DNA of 64,000 nucleotides, taken from positions 23,167-87,166 of IMG/VR virus record IMGVR_UViG_3300025438_000009, one strand, 5' to 3'. This DNA comes from a virus. The notes below the pieces were generated by a model, which was not told where the DNA came from, did not search any database, and worked only from the letters and a program-made list of their open reading frames with translations. This document shows positions 21,141 through 29,699 of this stretch, in pieces (within the stretch, counting starts at the first letter, position 1; the number at the start of each line of letters is the position of its first letter). Position numbers and translations under genes: made by a program.

Positions 21141-24100
21141 GTGAGCCAAGGACGTGACGTGCTGAAGGCCCTAATCGCGGCTATTAATCCTTTTGCTGGT
21201 GGGAACTCTCGGCTTGCTCGTTCTCTTCGAGCCCGCAAACAACCTCGTGACCGCAAGGGTAGGTTCATTCGGACTGGTTCTGGTGTTAAGTTTGATATCA
21301 GAATTGGTGGCAAGGTTGTCCCTCTTACTGCACGCTCTGTAGGTTCTGCTTCTCGCGAGGGCTACATTCAAATGTATGTTCCGGCAGGCGACCCCAATCT
21401 ACCCGCAGGATTCTACGAGGTCGAGTCTGGCAAGGGTATGCTTGTTCAGGCGGTTATTGATGCTCCTGAAGTTGGGGACTCTAGTGTCTCAGTTACAGAC
21501 AAGAACATTATTGACCTTGAAAGTATCAGAACCTCTGACTCTCCCGAGGGCTGGGACTTTGAACCTGGCGAAAATGGCGAGGACCGTTGGGTTAGTCAGG
21601 ATGGAAAACTTGAGATTCTTGATAACTCTGAGACGGGGAAAATTGAGCTCAGTGAAAATGGCAAAAAGATTTCTGAGCATGCTGAAGTTCCCGACGCTTT
21701 TGTAGCGTCTGACAAGCGAGACATTGAACAGTCTCTAACAAAAAACTCTAAGACAGTTGTTGCCCGCCTCCGTGCCAACCTCGATGATGCTGAAACGGCT
21801 AAAGACGCTGGCCCAACAGATGCCAAAAATGCGAGAGAAGCTCTCGACAATGCTCTTTTTGATGACCCAGATTCCGAAGAAAAACTTGCGCTTGTTGATT
21901 CAGAGGCACCCGACCCAGAGAGCATGGGTGAGAGCGTACAGCTTTCCCCAAAGGACCTCGCAGACATGCGTAGAAGTCCGCTTACCTCTCAGCACCTTAA
22001 TGAAGACGGAACTTTTACCGAAGAGCGCCAGGCTTTACACGATGAAATAATCCGCAGGGCCTTAGAGGGCTCAACCCCCGTTGAGAACCCTACTCAGTGG
22101 ATGAATGGTGGCGGTCCTGGTTCCGGGAAGAGCTCACTCACTGAGGGTGTCAACAAAGAGCTTACGGGTTATGACGAGAACTCCGTTCTTCTTGACCCTG
22201 ATGAGGTTAAGCGCGAACTACCTGAGGTCCAGGAGGCTCTTGCTCGGATTGAGGCTGGCGAGGCTACTGAGGATGATATTGAGTGGGCTGGTCTTAGCCA
22301 TGAAGAGAGTAGTTACATTGCTAAGCGTATTCACCTCGCTGCTCTTGAGCGCCACCACAACGTTATTTTTGACGGTACAGGCGATGGAAGCGTAGACAGC
22401 GTCCGTAAAAAGGTCGAGCTTGCCCGGAAGAATGGCTATAAGCGCATTGAGGCTAACTACCTGTATCTGGAGCCCGATGAGGGCATTAAGCGTGCCAAAG
22501 AGCGTCAGGCTAAAAGTCACCGTAAGGTTCCTACTAAAGTCATCGAGGAGACCTACCAGACCGTCTCTAGTATTTTTCCAGAGCTTGCAGAGTCTGGCAT
22601 TTTTGATACGCTTCGTTTGTTTGACAACAACCAGGAGCGTGGTGTCACTGCCAAACTAATTTTTGAGCAGGTTGATGGTGATACTCAAGTTCTTGATGAC
22701 GACGCATACGACAGGTTTCAGAAGGCTCGCCCTACCGGGGGTGCGCCACCCCCACCAGTTGAAGAGGTCGTGGAGATTTCAGCTCCAGAGGCACCGACGA
22801 CACCAGAAGCCACGTTGCCTGACGGCGAGGACTCCCCACAGCTCCCCCGTATAGAGCGAACTCTTGACGAAGTCAACGCGGAACTTGCCGAGTTAAATGA
22901 GCGGATGCGCGAGCTAGAGGCGTCTGGGGCGGACGTCACGACTCCCGAAGAGTTTGATGCGCATGTCCAAGAGACGATAGACCTCCTAGCTGAGATTGAC
23001 GAAGTCCAAAATGAAAGAGTTCCTCTTGTTGTCAGAGAGGCCATGAGACAGGCAGTTGACAATCGGGACAGAGATACGCTAGAGTCGCTAAACACATCTA
23101 TTGATTCTGCCGAAGCCGAGAGTATTAGACTTAAGAGCAGAGGACAGGACGCATCTGAATCTGAGGAAAGATACCAAAATCTTATTGCCCAAAGAGATGC
23201 CTTACTAGAAAGAAGAGAGAACAATGTCGGAGAAATTGGACCAACAACTGACAGAAGACCAGCGGGAACAGTTCCTAGCGGTGTGGAAGGAGCGCCGTCC
23301 CGAAGTGCTCGAGTGGAGCGACAAGGAGATACTCTACGCGATGTTTCTGGGAATGTAGTTGCCACCAGGATTGATGGTCCCTCTAACGCAAACGAAATAG
23401 ATGCTGACGGTAGCAGGCTTGTAGAACTATTCGAGGTCAACTCCGACCAGGCAGAGCTTTTTAGGGGGGCTCTTCAGTCCAGTGTGGACGCCAGTGAGCA
23501 CGGTAGCTCTGTTACCGTCCACGACTTGGAGTATTACCAGCAAGACGGGGTCCGTATGTTCCTCACCCAGGATGGGCTGGGTGGAGTCGTTCTCAATGGA
23601 GATGAAATAGTCTCCGGCTTCATGCACCCCGGGGCTTCTGACCGTGGACAGGGTGCCATTATCTCTATGGTCTCTAGTATGGTAGACCGCGGCGGTCGCC
23701 GTCTGGATGCTTATGACACTGTGCTTCCTGACTTTTATGCCGAAGCTGGGTTTAAACCCGTTGGCAGGATTAAGTGGGATGACGCAGAGGCGCCTGAGGG
23801 TTGGAATTACGAGCTATATAGCAGGTGGAATAATGGTCGTCCCGACATTGTATTTATGGCATACGACCCTGAGCGTGTTGGGTCTGACTATAACAATACC
23901 GAGGGCGAGTTACTAAGTGACTATGGACGCGGTGAGGTACTTCAGCGGGAGGTTTTGGCAACTCTGGATGATTCTACAGTCTCTGAGATTTTGGAGGAGA
24001 GGAATAGTCTTTTTGCTGAGCGTCGTCGCCTTGCCCTGGAGGTTAACGAAGAGTTAAAGTCTCCTGACGGGCTTCTTCTTGGGGCAGTCCCCATCGGTGA

Positions 24101-27100
24101 CCGTGGCGCTCCTGATAATCTTTCTCTTATCTACGCGCCTGTTGGTCAAACCGTTGAGGTCACTAATGACGACGGCACAAAACGTCGCTATAAGAAAGTT
24201 TTTACTGGTCTTTGGAAGCGCGTTGATGACCCCACAGACTTAAAGCGTTACCGCTCACACCAGATTCGAACTGGTTTTATGGAGTACGTCCGCCCTAGGG
24301 ATGACGATAGTGTTTCTCCTAGTATTGCTCCTAGCCCCACAACCAGCGCTCCCGTAGCTGTCCCTTACTTTTTTCCTCCCAATACCAGTAAAGAAGAGCT
24401 CGAGTCTTTAAGAGAGTCTTACCAGCGCCAGGTGGGTAGCTCAGACAATGCTGTTGACTCAGAGCGCTCTGCAGCGACCGTTCGGCTTATTGACCGTTTG
24501 TTGGCGTCTCGGGGGGGAGAGATTCTAGACAACACTCCTGAAACTCCGGATAATACGCCTAGCCGTAGAATGGGTGCGCCTCTTCTGCCTGACAACTTGC
24601 CAACTTTGGGTAAGAGCACTGAGCCGTACACTCCAGGACAGGTTGATGTTCCGGGCGCAAGTGATGACCCTGCAGTAATTGCTAATACTTTCCGTGAGGT
24701 TGACCTTAAGAATTCTTACGAAATGGCTCTTATCACCAACTCAGACATGGTGAGGACTAACTTTCCTCCTGCTGAGGACGAGATTTTTGGGGCAGAAGTT
24801 AACTTGCCTATTGACGCTGTCCGTGATGCTTTGCAACTCATGGGCATTGACACAAATCAAACCGTAGAAACGATAGAGACTATTGAGCAGAATCGGGGCG
24901 AAGAGAGCACCGACCCAGTAACAACTGCAGACATTGAAGAATATAACTTTAATCAAAAAGAGCTCGAAAATCTTTATGGCTCATATGAACAACTTCGGAG
25001 CGCTAGAGCTTACGCTGTATCATCCGGACAGCCCGACTCTAGCATTGCCAATGTTGATGAAAGAATGCGTGCCCTTCGGGAAAGAATTCGTAGGCTTGAG
25101 TCTCAAGGTTTAAGAATTACTGAGCGTCCTGAGACAGTTGATGTCGGCCAGTTCAGGTGGGATTCTAGTGACCCAGACATTTACCGTCCAGGGCTTGTCA
25201 TGGAGGCCCTCAGGAAGAAGTATCCAAACGCTACAGAAAACTCAGATGGTGAGTTGGTTATTGGAGAAGCCGAATACACTGTCGCCAACGGCAAAAGATT
25301 TAAGTACGAAGCAGTCATCACAAAGACGGACGACGAGCTTTTCTATGTGTACATTCGAGAGACGAACTTGGGGGAGGAGGACCCAGCTAAGCGTTTCCGC
25401 TCAATTCGTTATGGTGAGATGCGTCACTCTGCTAGGGCTGTTAACATCCAGGCAATGAAGGCCCTAAAGAAAATTGACAACAGCGCTGGTGGCTCTAACA
25501 TTCACTCTTGGTTCAATGACCGCAGACGCGCCCGTGAGGGACGCGCAGCTAAGTTTGATGTGGCTGATGCCCAAGGGATGCCCCATCACATTCGGGATAT
25601 GGTGTTGACTCGTGAGTCTATCCGAAAGATTCAAGAAGCCGTTGATGAAGATGGCATCACTGAAGAGATGGTTACAACTCTTTATAACTACATCAACAAC
25701 TTTGGTAATAACGCTAATGTCATGCTCGCACTTTATGACACGTTTGGTCTTGACACTCCCACCTTGAACCGCTTTGTTGATGCTACTAACCAGCACATCC
25801 ATGAGCGTGACGGACTCAATACTTTTTCGCTGTGGGAGTCTGATAATGGCACTCCGCTTGCCGAGGGTGACATAGTTACGTATACGGGAGACCCAAGTCA
25901 AACAGGCTTCGATAATAACGCTGGCCGACGAGCTATTGTTAAAATCCGTAGCTTGGAGCACCGCTCTGGTGGGTACACGTACACGGATTATGTACAGATT
26001 AAGTTTATTGACGATGACGATGTCCCTATTCCTGGAATAGATTATCTTGTTGTTTCTTCGCACAATCTTCGCTTGGACAGAACTTTTGGAAACACTGATG
26101 GCTCTGAGCGTCGAGGGCCTAATGCAATCTCTACGCCACTGCCTGTCTTGACTACTCGCGCTGGGAACCGCTATGCGGGACAGGGCCGACTGGGTAGTAT
26201 CTCTCCTTACGTTACGGAGTATGACCGAGACACGATGGCAAGTCCGACAGTTGAGATTGACGGGGTTAAGTACCCTGTTCAGGCGTCTCGTCAAAGCTTG
26301 GTTGGACCAGACTTAACAAATATTGTTGCTCGCCCTGGGGATATGCAAACTGGCGATTTTATTATGCAGTTTGACCCCACATTTAGCTCTAGGCGTTTGG
26401 TTGAAGTTGTCAACGTGGAGACTCTAGAGAGTGGAAACGTTCGTCTTACACTTGTTGAGCCTATCAATATTTCATCGGCACGGGTGTCTCAAACAGAATT
26501 TGACGCTAATTCTACGCTAGCTATTGATGCGTACCGCAAGGACCCTAACTACGCTCCTGAGAGCGGACTTACTATGAGCCACGTTGGGCGCTTGGCTGAA
26601 ACTGTGCGAACCACTAATATTGACGCACTTACCCCTAGGAGCCGGGAAGTTATTCGGGGAATTCTGGGTAGCGCTGATGCAAGAGGCATTGAGAGTGGCG
26701 AGTTCACTCTTGAGGACTACAATGATGCGTTCCTGGATATGCTGGATAACCAGAACAATGAGCCGAGGGGTCCGGTTTCACTGGCGGAGGCTCGCAGGGC
26801 AGTGGAGAATGCTTCAAACCGTGGACTACCCGACGGTGACGCATTTTCTTCCATAAATTCTGTACGTGACGCTTCCGTTTCTCGGGGGGCAGAGCTGGGT
26901 GTTGATACTGGAGTAGAGACCCTGCCCTCTCAAATTATCCCGGAGGGCCCGCCCGTTCTAGAGACTCTAATTCCCGCTAATCTTCAGCAGGGTCCTTATG
27001 GCCCCAATGCTGGTGTGGTTGAGGGTGTGGATAGGGCTAGGATGGTAGAAATCCTGAGTATGCCAAAGAGTGTAGCCAGAACAAGAGCCTTTAATACAAT

Positions 27101-29699
27101 TATTCGTGCTTCTGTGGGAGATAAGGTCTTTGGCAAACGATTCACTTTGAGGTTCTTGAGCTCTGACATCACTGCTAGTAGCATTAAGTGGAACTCTAGA
27201 ATAGTTGACCCCGTAACGGGCTCAGATGTCGGTAGAGTTGAGAGAACTTACAGACTTCTGGCTGATGGAACTATCGATGTTCATCACGACTATGTTTGGC
27301 TCTCTCGTGATGAAGACACTGGGACTGGATTTGCTTCTGAGTTTTACCAAGTATCAGACAACTTCTACAGGTCAATTGGCGTGGATATCAACACGATGCA
27401 GACTGCCAGAGATGGTTCGTATGCTTGGGCAGCAGCCAACTTTACGTGGGCTAGCATGGCTGGAATCTCAACGATTATTGCCCGGTTGTACACCAAAGCA
27501 AAAGATTACGATTCCACGAGCCCCGAAACCGCACTTCAACTGAGGCAGATGGCCGTTCGTCTTGGTGCCCCTGAGGGGTATGAAAACGTACCTGAGAACG
27601 AGAGAGCGGCCAGGCTTCGGGATGCCCTGAGAACTTTGTCTATGTCTACTATTCAAACCTCAGCAGACTATCCAGACCCCGTAGATATTGCAATGCTTCT
27701 CGACCCCGATGATGAGCAGAAGAGGGCGGAACACGCTCGGGAGCAGGGGCTACTACCGGAAAGAGAGAGAAAAAAGTATAAAACTCTGGGAAGAGAGATT
27801 CTCCAAGAAACTGGCTGGAATGCTATTCGATACCTAAACCCAGAGCTGGACCCCAGACCAGAAAACAGAAAAAACAAGAAGTCCCTCAAGGATATTCGAA
27901 AAGAAGAGGCTGTAGAAAAGGCCAAAAAAGAATTTGAGGAAGCTGAAAAGGCTAAGAAAGATAGAGAGCCCACCCAAGAGCCCCCCCAGGGTAAAAAAAT
28001 TACCAGTCTTAACGACGTAAGTAATGCCCAACCTGGCGATGTTCTTCGGGTTACTGAGTTGGGCTCTGGGGGAATATACATAAAGCAAGAAGACGGCTCG
28101 TGGGATGAAATTTATTTTGGTAGTGCAGCTTCTTCTTTTAGAAGTGGCTACACCGATGAGGATTTGGATATCCGCGACACTTTTACTGATGAAATTAGAG
28201 AAGCACAAATTTTTAGTACTCCTGAAGGTAAAGAGTATTATTCCCGTTATATGGCAGGAACTTTAACACTAGAGAACCCCACGAAAGAAACCTTAGAAAA
28301 AGCTCTAAGAGATGGTGACATTGCCACTCTGGACGGCCTCTACAGAGGAAATCTTTTGGGCAATGGTCAGAGTAAATTCGGAAGAAATAACTTTACGCTC
28401 AAAGTAAATTCTTCTGGATTCGAAAGCAGGGGCATAGATTACGACGTTTACGAGGTCTCGGGGGATATCCTAGATGAGAATGGTCAGAGGGTAGGACCTT
28501 TTAGGCGAGAAATACGAATGATGCCTGACGGCAAACTTGTGGTGTACCACGGCATACTGAAAATTGAGGATGACAGATACAAGAGAACTGGTTTTGGGAA
28601 GGATTTCACAAAACAGAGTGAAGCTTTGTATAGGCAGATGGGTGTCGACACAATTAGACTCCACTCAGCGTGGGATGGGAGCTACTTCTGGGCTATGCAA
28701 GGCTATGAGTGGGACCTTGAACACGCTAACGGAAGTAAGTACGAAATTTTGGGTAGTGTCCCTGGCAACCTTCAGTTAGCTCTAGAACAAGCTAAGGGCG
28801 ATGGTCGCGACGAGGATGTCGCAAAGCTTGAAGATATAATTGATAGACTGGCTGGTTTAGAGATTGACGACCCCAACTTCCCTTCTCCGAGTGAACTTGC
28901 TGTGCTTAAGAGTCAAGACCCTGCGATGAACGATGATGGTAGTGGTGGGAACGGTAAGTGGATGCAAGACATCCTTAAGAACACGGGGTGGCATGGAAAG
29001 AAAGAGTTTGGGGGGGACGAGGACCCTGAGGGGGTGTCGGGAGATGCGGGTCCAGATAGCGACTCAGGTGGTGATGGTGGCTCAGACGGAGGTGGAGGAC
29101 CCAGCGGGGACGAAGACTCTCCAGATGAGGGTAGCTTCGTCTCGTATACGAGAGCAGACCTTGATGCGTTCTATGATGATGTTGACCAGGGAAGTTCTCT
29201 TTCACTTCCCGCACAAAATGCAGTAGAAATGTACCAAGTGGGCGGTGGCGGTGGCGATTCTCGGTATGAAGAAATTAACAGGGGACTGCGCAATGGTGAT
29301 GAGGACGTTGTTAACTCTTCTATAGTGGGGGAGTTAGATGAAGCCACATCGGGCGGTGCTGAACTGACAAGAGATGTTTTTTTATGGCGAACCATTAGGT
29401 TGACCATAGATGACCCGAGGGCTGCCGAGTTGAGTAGTCTGAGCCCAGGTGATATCATTGAGGATGGTGGCTTTGTCTCAACCACAGCAGACCTGGATTG
29501 GGCTGTAGATTTTTCAAGAAGGTACAACTCTTCGGTGCTTCTACAAATCGAAGCACCTGCTGGGACAACAGGAGTAGTACCTTATCAGTACACGAATCAA
29601 CTTAGAGATGAATATGAATTTATTCTTCCTAGGACTACTAGGTTTGAAGTAATATCGGGTAATCCCAACACGGGAGCTATAAGAGTGAGGATTGTATAA
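21141..29699 (+). CDS. Giant multi-effector head-associated protein: zeta-toxin-like P-loop kinase, three GNAT-like domains, C-terminal VIP2-like ADP-ribosyltransferase
   Basis: QPRDRKGRF; GGGPGSGKS..DPDEVK..FDGT (~22.0-22.7 kb); GGRRLDAYDTVLPDFYAEAGF (~23.7 kb); GTGFASEFY..DGSYAWA and RTGFGKDF..DGSYFWA; INRGLR..LWR..GFVSTT..EYEFILPR. Confidence 0.85.
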   Translation: MSQGRDVLKALIAAINPFAGGNSRLARSLRARKQPRDRKGRFIRTGSGVKFDIRIGGKVVPLTARSVGSASREGYIQMYVPAGDPNLPAGFYEVESGKGMLVQAVIDAPEVGDSSVSVTDKNIIDLESIRTSDSPEGWDFEPGENGEDRWVSQDGKLEILDNSETGKIELSENGKKISEHAEVPDAFVASDKRDIEQSLTKNSKTVVARLRANLDDAETAKDAGPTDAKNAREALDNALFDDPDSEEKLALVDSEAPDPESMGESVQLSPKDLADMRRSPLTSQHLNEDGTFTEERQALHDEIIRRALEGSTPVENPTQWMNGGGPGSGKSSLTEGVNKELTGYDENSVLLDPDEVKRELPEVQEALARIEAGEATEDDIEWAGLSHEESSYIAKRIHLAALERHHNVIFDGTGDGSVDSVRKKVELARKNGYKRIEANYLYLEPDEGIKRAKERQAKSHRKVPTKVIEETYQTVSSIFPELAESGIFDTLRLFDNNQERGVTAKLIFEQVDGDTQVLDDDAYDRFQKARPTGGAPPPPVEEVVEISAPEAPTTPEATLPDGEDSPQLPRIERTLDEVNAELAELNERMRELEASGADVTTPEEFDAHVQETIDLLAEIDEVQNERVPLVVREAMRQAVDNRDRDTLESLNTSIDSAEAESIRLKSRGQDASESEERYQNLIAQRDALLERRENNVGEIGPTTDRRPAGTVPSGVEGAPSRSARVERQGDTLRDVSGNVVATRIDGPSNANEIDADGSRLVELFEVNSDQAELFRGALQSSVDASEHGSSVTVHDLEYYQQDGVRMFLTQDGLGGVVLNGDEIVSGFMHPGASDRGQGAIISMVSSMVDRGGRRLDAYDTVLPDFYAEAGFKPVGRIKWDDAEAPEGWNYELYSRWNNGRPDIVFMAYDPERVGSDYNNTEGELLSDYGRGEVLQREVLATLDDSTVSEILEERNSLFAERRRLALEVNEELKSPDGLLLGAVPIGDRGAPDNLSLIYAPVGQTVEVTNDDGTKRRYKKVFTGLWKRVDDPTDLKRYRSHQIRTGFMEYVRPRDDDSVSPSIAPSPTTSAPVAVPYFFPPNTSKEELESLRESYQRQVGSSDNAVDSERSAATVRLIDRLLASRGGEILDNTPETPDNTPSRRMGAPLLPDNLPTLGKSTEPYTPGQVDVPGASDDPAVIANTFREVDLKNSYEMALITNSDMVRTNFPPAEDEIFGAEVNLPIDAVRDALQLMGIDTNQTVETIETIEQNRGEESTDPVTTADIEEYNFNQKELENLYGSYEQLRSARAYAVSSGQPDSSIANVDERMRALRERIRRLESQGLRITERPETVDVGQFRWDSSDPDIYRPGLVMEALRKKYPNATENSDGELVIGEAEYTVANGKRFKYEAVITKTDDELFYVYIRETNLGEEDPAKRFRSIRYGEMRHSARAVNIQAMKALKKIDNSAGGSNIHSWFNDRRRAREGRAAKFDVADAQGMPHHIRDMVLTRESIRKIQEAVDEDGITEEMVTTLYNYINNFGNNANVMLALYDTFGLDTPTLNRFVDATNQHIHERDGLNTFSLWESDNGTPLAEGDIVTYTGDPSQTGFDNNAGRRAIVKIRSLEHRSGGYTYTDYVQIKFIDDDDVPIPGIDYLVVSSHNLRLDRTFGNTDGSERRGPNAISTPLPVLTTRAGNRYAGQGRLGSISPYVTEYDRDTMASPTVEIDGVKYPVQASRQSLVGPDLTNIVARPGDMQTGDFIMQFDPTFSSRRLVEVVNVETLESGNVRLTLVEPINISSARVSQTEFDANSTLAIDAYRKDPNYAPESGLTMSHVGRLAETVRTTNIDALTPRSREVIRGILGSADARGIESGEFTLEDYNDAFLDMLDNQNNEPRGPVSLAEARRAVENASNRGLPDGDAFSSINSVRDASVSRGAELGVDTGVETLPSQIIPEGPPVLETLIPANLQQGPYGPNAGVVEGVDRARMVEILSMPKSVARTRAFNTIIRASVGDKVFGKRFTLRFLSSDITASSIKWNSRIVDPVTGSDVGRVERTYRLLADGTIDVHHDYVWLSRDEDTGTGFASEFYQVSDNFYRSIGVDINTMQTARDGSYAWAAANFTWASMAGISTIIARLYTKAKDYDSTSPETALQLRQMAVRLGAPEGYENVPENERAARLRDALRTLSMSTIQTSADYPDPVDIAMLLDPDDEQKRAEHAREQGLLPERERKKYKTLGREILQETGWNAIRYLNPELDPRPENRKNKKSLKDIRKEEAVEKAKKEFEEAEKAKKDREPTQEPPQGKKITSLNDVSNAQPGDVLRVTELGSGGIYIKQEDGSWDEIYFGSAASSFRSGYTDEDLDIRDTFTDEIREAQIFSTPEGKEYYSRYMAGTLTLENPTKETLEKALRDGDIATLDGLYRGNLLGNGQSKFGRNNFTLKVNSSGFESRGIDYDVYEVSGDILDENGQRVGPFRREIRMMPDGKLVVYHGILKIEDDRYKRTGFGKDFTKQSEALYRQMGVDTIRLHSAWDGSYFWAMQGYEWDLEHANGSKYEILGSVPGNLQLALEQAKGDGRDEDVAKLEDIIDRLAGLEIDDPNFPSPSELAVLKSQDPAMNDDGSGGNGKWMQDILKNTGWHGKKEFGGDEDPEGVSGDAGPDSDSGGDGGSDGGGGPSGDEDSPDEGSFVSYTRADLDAFYDDVDQGSSLSLPAQNAVEMYQVGGGGGDSRYEEINRGLRNGDEDVVNSSIVGELDEATSGGAELTRDVFLWRTIRLTIDDPRAAELSSLSPGDIIEDGGFVSTTADLDWAVDFSRRYNSSVLLQIEAPAGTTGVVPYQYTNQLRDEYEFILPRTTRFEVISGNPNTGAIRVRIV
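23224..23358 (+). CDS. Nested +1-frame 44-aa ORF inside the giant gene (candidate antitoxin)
   Basis: MSEKLDQQLTEDQREQFLAVWKERRPEVLEWSDKEILYAMFLGM; purine-rich RBS; TTGACA-N18-TAGAGT at 23056-23085. Confidence 0.5.
   Translation: MSEKLDQQLTEDQREQFLAVWKERRPEVLEWSDKEILYAMFLGM

Follow-up and report, generated by a model that had tools for sequence, protein, structure and literature searches.

Can a giant phage gene hold a second, complete gene within the linker between two of its domains, and what would the product of such a gene do beside the enzyme encoded next to it? The question is raised by a stretch of 64,000 nucleotides (nt), hereafter the window, drawn from an uncultivated virus record of 87 kb that is rated about 51% complete (IMG/VR record IMGVR_UViG_3300025438_000009, positions 23,167 to 87,166). 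On the plus strand of the window, an open reading frame (ORF) of 2852 amino acids (aa) at 21141..29699 encodes a polyvalent virion/effector protein that contains a zeta-like kinase, an acetyltransferase-like domain, further domains and a C-terminal ADP-ribosyltransferase. Within this giant gene, on the same strand and in its +1 frame, a 44-codon ORF runs from ATG to TAG at 23224..23358. A preliminary description of the locus had proposed that this is an overprinted gene, hidden inside the effector and inherited with it, and the comparisons described below indicate that the nested gene is very probably real.

The elements on which that proposal was built are all present in the sequence: the 44-aa ORF in the +1 frame, a purine-rich tract before it, the motif TTGACA-18-TAGAGT further upstream, and a main frame that over the same bases reads NVGEIGPTTDRRPAGTVPSGVEGAPSRSARVERQGDTLRDVSGNV, low in complexity and linker-like. 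The ORF also lies where it had been placed, between a match to Zeta_toxin (aa 312-499 of the giant protein) and the acetyltransferase-like domain (from about aa 756), whose conserved main-frame N-terminal extension starts at 23310. The predicted product consists of three helices (residues 11-21, 26-30 and 33-42) with no strand, at a mean predicted local distance difference test (pLDDT) value of 82.5, and belongs to a family without a name. The peptide has no match in Pfam, PHROGs or NCBIfam, and a Foldseek search of its fold against the PDB returned nothing usable (best E 6.9); matches in a protein atlas, to fructosamine-kinase fragments, scored below 0.9 and were taken as noise. The small protein is missing from annotation, that of the cultured Microbacterium phage Caron included, because gene callers forbid fully nested genes.

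The first line of evidence for the gene is its retention in relatives. IMG/VR and JGI metagenomes contain diverged forms of the giant gene, with aa identities of about 58-60%: L002, and L003, which is the same as L004 and L010 and carries the handle G001; a third lineage of the giant-gene set, L009, is near-identical (99%). The nested ORF is intact in every lineage, with its ATG, frame and TAG, and is 45 codons long in L002 and 44 in L003/G001, and the peptide is 80-82% identical between the window and the diverged lineages. Two of the searches for relatives were probed with the downstream main-frame domain only, and were hence unbiased towards the ORF; they recovered just these same lineages. 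One copy of the peptide family is found in each of G000-G003. Further scans of IMG/VR with the peptide family, repeated with an alignment led by a different member, gave no new loci, and two matches in a scan of genome contigs (L013 and L014) span 15-16 residues only and are regarded as due to chance.

Within a single sequence, neither the ORF nor its promoter-like motif is remarkable; it is the relatives that lift the ORF far above chance. The giant gene contains 16 ATG-started, same-strand ORFs of at least 44 aa in alternative frames, as against 11.1 +/- 2.0 in 300 synonymous-codon shuffles of the same gene. All 16 are in the +1 frame and none is in the +2 frame, which is probably an effect of codon usage. 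These ORFs served as a control for retention, 15 of the 16 being comparable with G001 and 10-12 with L002/L003, while the one at 28933-29226 falls mostly in a gap. Among the 15 comparable ORFs, the nested ORF alone jointly retains its start, its stop and its open frame. Thirteen of the 14 others have one to five internal stops in the relatives, and the remaining one (26677-26856) has no stops and has lost both its ATG and its stop codon. The nested ORF is also the sole alternative-frame ORF in which identity in the +1 frame (36/45) exceeds that in the main frame (30/45).

The second line of evidence is a signature of dual coding. In a codon alignment of the whole gene with its 2899-aa G001 orthologue (2594 codons, 58% aa identity), all 26 of the 26 degenerate main-frame codons at 23265..23354 (plus strand) are identical, against a background of 0.50. 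None of the other windows in the scan, 2565 in all, scores as well; the binomial p is 1.5e-8, or about 4e-5 after multiplication by the number of windows, and frozen synonymous sites over the overlap are found alike in comparisons with L002 and with L003. Sorted by main-frame codon position, the differences number 8, 8 and 1 inside the ORF, which are small counts, versus 810, 644 and 1434 in the rest of the gene. Thus the main-frame wobble position, which is the second codon position of the ORF, is frozen; the binomial probability of at most 1 of 17 changes at p 0.50 is about 1.5e-4. Between the window and L002, the 14 differences over 126 nt (again small counts) divide into 0 synonymous and 14 non-synonymous in the main frame, 6 and 8 in the ORF frame, and 1 and 13 in the antisense frame, which is also open. 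In the N-terminal third of the ORF the DNA has diverged, and the replacements in the ORF frame are S/T, E/D, Q/K and R/K. Taken at the level of sequence comparison, these patterns demonstrate purifying selection on the nested ORF in its own frame, and the proposal of a genuine overprinted gene is borne out by the retention of the ORF, the frozen synonymous sites and the substitutions that avoid its second codon position.

Two other features of the scan touch on the same question. An antisense ORF of 240 aa (22718..23440, minus strand) was considered as the selected frame and rejected on its ratio of 1 synonymous to 13 non-synonymous differences; L002 and L003 have shorter open versions of it. 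The region that ranks second for low synonymous divergence from G001 is 28191-28631, with its best window at 28419-28508 (20/23 codons identical, p 2.5e-4). It is not significant after correction, and the alternative-frame ORFs at 28105-28266 and 28570-28779 are broken in G001.

How would such a gene be expressed? An in-frame TAG at 23206..23208 (plus strand), five codons upstream of the nested ATG, closes the +1 frame, so that there is no earlier start for the ORF and no entry into it by frameshifting from upstream; in L002 and L003 the nested ATG is immediately preceded by a TAG. Between stop and start lies a purine-rich, Shine-Dalgarno-like tract, GAAAGAAGAGAG, at 23208..23219 (plus strand), the last base of which is 4 nt before the ATG. 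The AAGAAG within it, 8 nt before the ATG, agrees with AAGGAG at five of six positions. Its equivalents are AAAGGGGAG in L003, AAAGGGAAG in L002 and GAAAGG in Caron, and sites of the AAGGAG/GAAAGGA type are used by other genes of the same phage. Most likely, ribosomes would initiate internally at this site on the late mRNA of the giant gene and so make the peptide.

The preliminary description had further assigned to the gene an internal promoter of its own, and this part of it is not supported. The sigma-70-like motif TTGACA-18 nt-TAGAGT at 23056..23085 (plus strand) matches 10 of 12 positions, and its -10 hexamer ends 138 nt before the ATG. Such a motif is at chance level in this sequence, since nine promoter-like sites occur in the giant gene versus 6.5 +/- 2.6 in shuffles. 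Both L002 and L003 retain the pattern TTGACA-N18-TAGA[GA]T, over a diverged spacer. The hexamers encode residues that the main frame conserves (V-D-N and L/V-E-S), and of the mere four informative synonymous sites three are kept, which is not significant; thus conservation of a promoter is indistinguishable here from conservation of the protein. Internal initiation would need no dedicated promoter, and the motif is a possible candidate only.

The peptide also occurs outside the overlap. When a profile built from four peptides was run against 1.84 billion proteins, 17 matched at E<=1e-3, and word-index searches gave 25 small proteins of 38-160 aa together with six longer ones. In an 11-row family alignment F17, W21, P26, V28, W31, D33, E35, I36 and G43 are invariant, and the family ends in ...W-S-D-x-E-I-L-x-x-M-x-x-G-M-COOH, the shared domain always being at the extreme C-terminus. 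Free-standing members are 38-91 aa long and start at their own Met, with an N-terminal extension that varies. Homologues that are called as separate proteins elsewhere are 43-54% identical to the peptide. Searches of cultured phages by tblastn with the peptide and with the family member P0022 gave matches at chance level (E>=1) or none. Because the family has free-standing as well as fused members, the peptide is probably an older, portable coding sequence across which the frame of the effector linker has been laid, as far as the sequences indicate. The idea of a gene hidden inside the effector therefore stands as to the nesting, while its direction is probably the reverse of that first supposed.

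Does the small gene belong with the enzyme domain that follows it? In the Microbacterium phages Caron, UtzChips and Barnstormer, a homologue of the acetyltransferase-like domain forms the C-terminus of an annotated minor capsid protein, the N-terminus of which is an unrelated VG15 head domain. These phages contain an unannotated 47-aa ORF in the +1 frame (L011:2894..3037), in the same place before the same domain, with GAAAGG 7 nt upstream of it; the domain itself is 39% identical. This ORF is the best match to the family hidden Markov model among 609 six-frame fragments (E 0.0065), and hhalign aligns it with the family end to end over 36 columns, at a probability of 69% and a P of 4.4e-5. The copies in Caron and UtzChips differ at seven positions, three of which are synonymous in the ORF frame versus one in the main frame. 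On these sequence grounds, the Microbacterium ORF is likely to be homologous to the nested peptide. The ORF seems to travel with the domain, since the pair is kept while the upstream neighbours differ among the window, L002/L003 and Caron. Inheritance with the effector module, as originally suggested, thus finds support with respect to the acetyltransferase-like domain and not to the zeta kinase, as nothing links the peptide to the kinase. A +1 frame that is open before homologues of the domain, proposed at the outset as a check, is seen in L002, L003/G001, L009 and the Microbacterium phages, and no ORF of the family was detected before other homologues; from the sequences compared, the pairing of ORF and domain is not universal.

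The presumed partner occupies about aa 756-920 of the giant protein (23406..23900, plus strand) and was assigned from its homologues, its motifs and phrog_2563, a group listed with function unknown. The motifs R-G-Q-G-A, which follows a strand, and F-Y-A-E-A-G-F are both conserved across eight diverse homologues, and homologues in Streptomyces phages were labelled 'acetyltransferase' by GenBank annotators. Calling the neighbour GNAT-like, as had been done, is therefore apt at the level of motifs and has no Pfam or NCBIfam match behind it. The domain is best described as putatively acetyltransferase-like rather than a proven GNAT, and what is called its cofactor cleft is defined by the motifs.

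Modelling of the domain together with the peptide, which had been proposed as a further check, supports binding. The complex model scored 0.87 (0.86, 0.87 and 0.88 in separate runs), as against 0.00-0.01 in three controls, of which the best reached 0.01. The mark applied to such scores is reached by 58 of 80 solved complexes and by 2 of 110 mismatched pairs, counts that are rough for the present case, since the alignments supplied were our own. At least 92% of contacts are shared between the runs, and the partner has a pLDDT of at least 85. In the model, peptide residues 37-44 contact domain residues 103-108, 112-117 (R-G-Q-G-A-I) and 137-142, and the contacted residues F104, G113 and L139 are invariant in the eight diverse homologues. 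The domain has no sequence relative in the PDB at E<=1, which makes recall of a solved complex unlikely. The conserved C-terminal helix of the peptide and its -G-M-COOH end are predicted to lie in a V-shaped cleft that is bounded by strands beta-4 and beta-5 and the R-G-Q-G-A loop, which is where GNAT enzymes bind acetyl-CoA. On the strength of this model, it is somewhat more probable than otherwise that the nested product binds the adjacent acetyltransferase-like domain.

If so, the peptide may be a cognate plug that acts much as an antitoxin or immunity protein does. Such a plug would hold the effector domain inactive during its synthesis and packing in the producing cell, and would be shed on unfolding of the effector or on its ejection into the next host. 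As to origin, a cassette of a small gene plus an enzyme would have been accreted into the polyvalent protein, with the small gene read across in another frame; this out-of-frame reading would have become the low-complexity linker. We infer the role of the peptide as an inhibitor or immunity-like plug with a confidence that falls just short of an even chance, and the complete reading, a separately initiated nested gene that makes a cognate plug, is evenly poised.

Several observations weigh against this reading. The sample is small: DNA is at hand for three diverged lineages, to which a single 43-aa protein (P0003) and a near-identical contig are added. No GGAG core is present in the ribosome-binding site of the nested ORF in the window. 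The score of the complex is a measure of model confidence, obtained with a domain alignment of three rows, and an AlphaFold model of the acetyltransferase-like domain from a three-row alignment is unusable, at a pLDDT of 42.9. Pfam and NCBIfam searches at E<=10 give no family for this domain or for three of its homologues, and its sole profile match in the PDB is the GNAT 2qec_A, at E 0.11 and over RGxG...LY..GF. As regards the pairing, no family ORF was detected before the domain in Methanobrevibacter virus vir075, and no family member was found near the solo acetyltransferase-like genes of Streptomyces phage GreenWeasel, Haloarcula virus HATV-2, Vibrio phage VP505 and Pseudomonas phage Ulina01. 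A 71-aa +1 ORF of Limnohabitans phage DC33 was rejected as a family member, at an hhalign probability of 0.07%. That ORF (L012:2699..2914) is located just upstream of the domain, inside a protein that exceeds 2100 aa, and has a family-like ending, ...E-I-V-E-M-A-E-K-F-G-F, without statistical similarity. Within the peptide family, P0005 (45 aa) starts with V and departs after ...S-D-E-E-I into a different eight-residue ending, which could be due to an indel or frameshift in that contig or to decay of the copy. Finally, the sequences most similar to the peptide, at 73-80% identity, are not free-standing proteins; they are the C-terminal tails of HD_4 proteins, that is, of RelA/SpoT-type hydrolases.

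This last observation leads to the strongest of the alternatives, in which the family is a portable C-terminal docking tag or adaptor that latches onto the acetyltransferase-like domain. The tagged enzymes (the HD hydrolase, HAD-like proteins and others) would ride into the capsid and on into the next host, and the free 44-aa form would be a cap, chaperone or assembly factor. Since the closest relatives are HD_4 tails, a docking tag fits them at least as well as an antidote does. At least nine larger proteins have the family domain as their extreme C-terminus: four with HD_4 (P0004, P0036, P0037 and P0038, stand-alone proteins of 213-277 aa, with the fragment P0034 in addition), one with PF18143 (P0039) and four with no known domain (P0013-P0015 and P0040), the tails of the last five being more distant. 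A scan of IMG/VR with the HD-tail proteins found 32 HD loci, with the tail in none of them. The tight interface of the complex model (0.87 versus 0.01 for the best control) would also suit a tag, and RelA/SpoT modules are among the domains accreted into polyvalent proteins according to a published survey (PMC5512222). However, 25 of the 31 family members from the word-index searches are small, with a short, variable N-terminal extension and no cargo. Moreover, the peptide is predicted to bind in the putative cofactor cleft, where it would block the enzyme and not merely dock to it. Overall, the docking tag is a serious alternative that we nevertheless consider unlikely.

The cognate plug must also be set against a real small gene whose function, for example as a regulator of host or phage, is unrelated to the domain, the linker simply tolerating a second frame. 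The gene-level evidence described above is silent on function, several homologues of the domain have no ORF, and nested small genes with separate roles are known, such as comS in srfA and GndA in gnd (PMC11230408). Against this, the ORF also stands before the domain in the Microbacterium phages, where the upstream part of the protein is unrelated (the VG15 head domain instead of the zeta kinase), and the complex model passes its mark while the controls remain at 0.00-0.01. An unrelated function is accordingly rather improbable, more so than a docking tag.

Much less probable still is an alternative C-terminus made by +1 ribosomal frameshifting in the linker, which would give a short isoform, kinase plus tail, ending at the TAG. 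The constant C-terminal position of the family within larger proteins would suit it. In the window, L002 and L003, however, the upstream TAG closes the +1 frame and any slip would have to take place within the nested ORF; in the +1 frame the ATG is retained and the N-terminal residues are conserved, with replacements of a conservative kind; inspection of the local sequence by eye showed no evident slippery site; and free-standing members begin at their own Met. Equally remote is the view that there is no gene, and that the open frame is incidental to the conservation of an RNA element, a DNA element or a segment exchanged not long ago: an alternative-frame ORF of 44 aa is indeed expected by chance and few lineages were compared, but the RNA at 23200-23380 folds no better than shuffled sequence (z 0.40, with 130 of 200 shuffles folding at least as well), the changes avoid the second codon position of the ORF and are synonymous or conservative in its frame, the N-terminal third keeps its protein character while its DNA has diverged, and homologues 43-54% identical are called as separate proteins elsewhere.

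How does the proposed cognate plug compare with known systems? The antitoxins of GNAT toxins carry a DNA-binding ribbon-helix-helix part. The nested peptide has no such domain, as it has no Pfam or NCBIfam match and consists of three short helices without a strand, and no sequence similarity between the peptide and the GNAT-toxin antitoxins was found. The likeness to pairs such as AtaR-AtaT and KacA-KacT lies in arrangement, with a small protein encoded immediately upstream of a protein of acetyltransferase fold. It may extend to mode of action, since AtaR neutralises AtaT through its C-terminal region and the C-terminal region of such antitoxins acts at the active or cofactor site of the toxin, according to PMC7758455, which matches the pose modelled here. 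The differences are that those antitoxins are separate genes, whereas the present ORF is overprinted on the coding sequence of its predicted partner, and that here a 44-aa three-helix protein without a Pfam match faces an enzyme that is one domain of a 2852-aa virion protein. In the same source, ParS of the RES/Xre pair ParS-ParT plugs ParT with its C-terminal carboxylate (PMC7758455). The invariant -G-M-COOH end of the nested peptide is likewise predicted to lie deepest in the cleft; this is an analogy only, as folds and chemistry differ, ParT being an ADP-ribosyltransferase and the present partner an acetyltransferase-like domain.

As for overlapping genes, lambda Rz1, which lies inside Rz in the +1 frame, and the overprinted genes of phiX174 are complete embedded genes with their own starts and with functionally linked products. 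Rz1 and Rz are spanin subunits, whereas the host gene here is a giant multi-domain effector; in contrast to both phage examples, the nested gene covers only an inter-domain linker and its frame is apparently the older one. Closer in size are comS in srfA of Bacillus subtilis and GndA in gnd of E. coli, peptides of less than 50 aa encoded out of frame inside large enzyme genes and tied to the biology of the host gene (PMC11230408). These are cellular genes with no homology to the nested peptide, and the passages on them in that article mention no binding of either product to the protein of the overlapping frame.

The giant protein itself resembles the polyvalent proteins of Iyer et al. (2017; PMC5512222), virion-associated giants that string together effector domains such as zeta-like kinase, GNAT and ART, with GNAT families among the accreted domains. 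The terms 'overlapping', 'frameshift' and 'immunity protein' each occur 0 times in its main text, supplements excluded. MuF polymorphic toxins have small candidate immunity ORFs downstream of the toxin, as separate genes, in Jamet et al. (2017; PMC5576092), whereas the present ORF is upstream of the domain and inside the same coding sequence; it is thus not the small ORF immediately downstream of a toxin domain gene by which immunity to polymorphic toxins is recognized. No description of a partner gene overprinted on the linker of a polyvalent protein was found in the literature consulted, which included PMC5512222 and PMC5576092 without their supplements.

The surroundings of the nested gene complete the picture. 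The giant gene follows portal-like genes, a placement that is the same in Caron, and the upstream neighbour of the nested ORF is a zeta-toxin-like P-loop kinase domain at aa 312-499 (22074..22637, plus strand; PF06414, E 1.4e-24). In L003 (about L003:2900-3900), and also in L002, an extra module of about 350 aa, absent from the protein of the window, separates the zeta-like kinase from the coiled-coil that precedes the nested ORF. No integrase (PF00589) was found in the 87-kb record, about 51% complete as noted, and megablast gave no close DNA relatives of the window among cultured phages. The stretch 22600-23900 is present whole or mostly in contigs of 24 public DNA runs labelled as salt-lake or freshwater metagenomes, so that the phage or its close kin recurs in such samples; no RNA runs carrying this stretch are listed. 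Contigs of four DNA runs over 22900-23700 are near-identical, one of them (X10) differing at 23632 and 23639, and the ORF is unchanged.

An understanding of the nested gene may bear on how giant phage effectors are built. Polyvalent effectors may grow by swallowing two-gene cassettes of a small partner plus an enzyme, and the fold of the peptide may be a general plug or latch for one acetyltransferase-like family, used free as an antidote, nested, or as a C-terminal tag that clips enzymes (e.g. RelA/SpoT-type HD hydrolases) onto injected proteins; this wider proposal is a tentative one, and we regard it as doubtful at present. Were the cassette reading true, unannotated partner genes would be systematically concealed in the linkers of giant phage proteins. 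Were the peptide a cognate plug, it would account for the ability of a phage to produce and package an enzyme that is potentially harmful to itself, it would represent a new and very small inhibitor fold for this class of enzyme, and it would show in concrete terms how cassettes are assembled into polyvalent proteins with several effectors.

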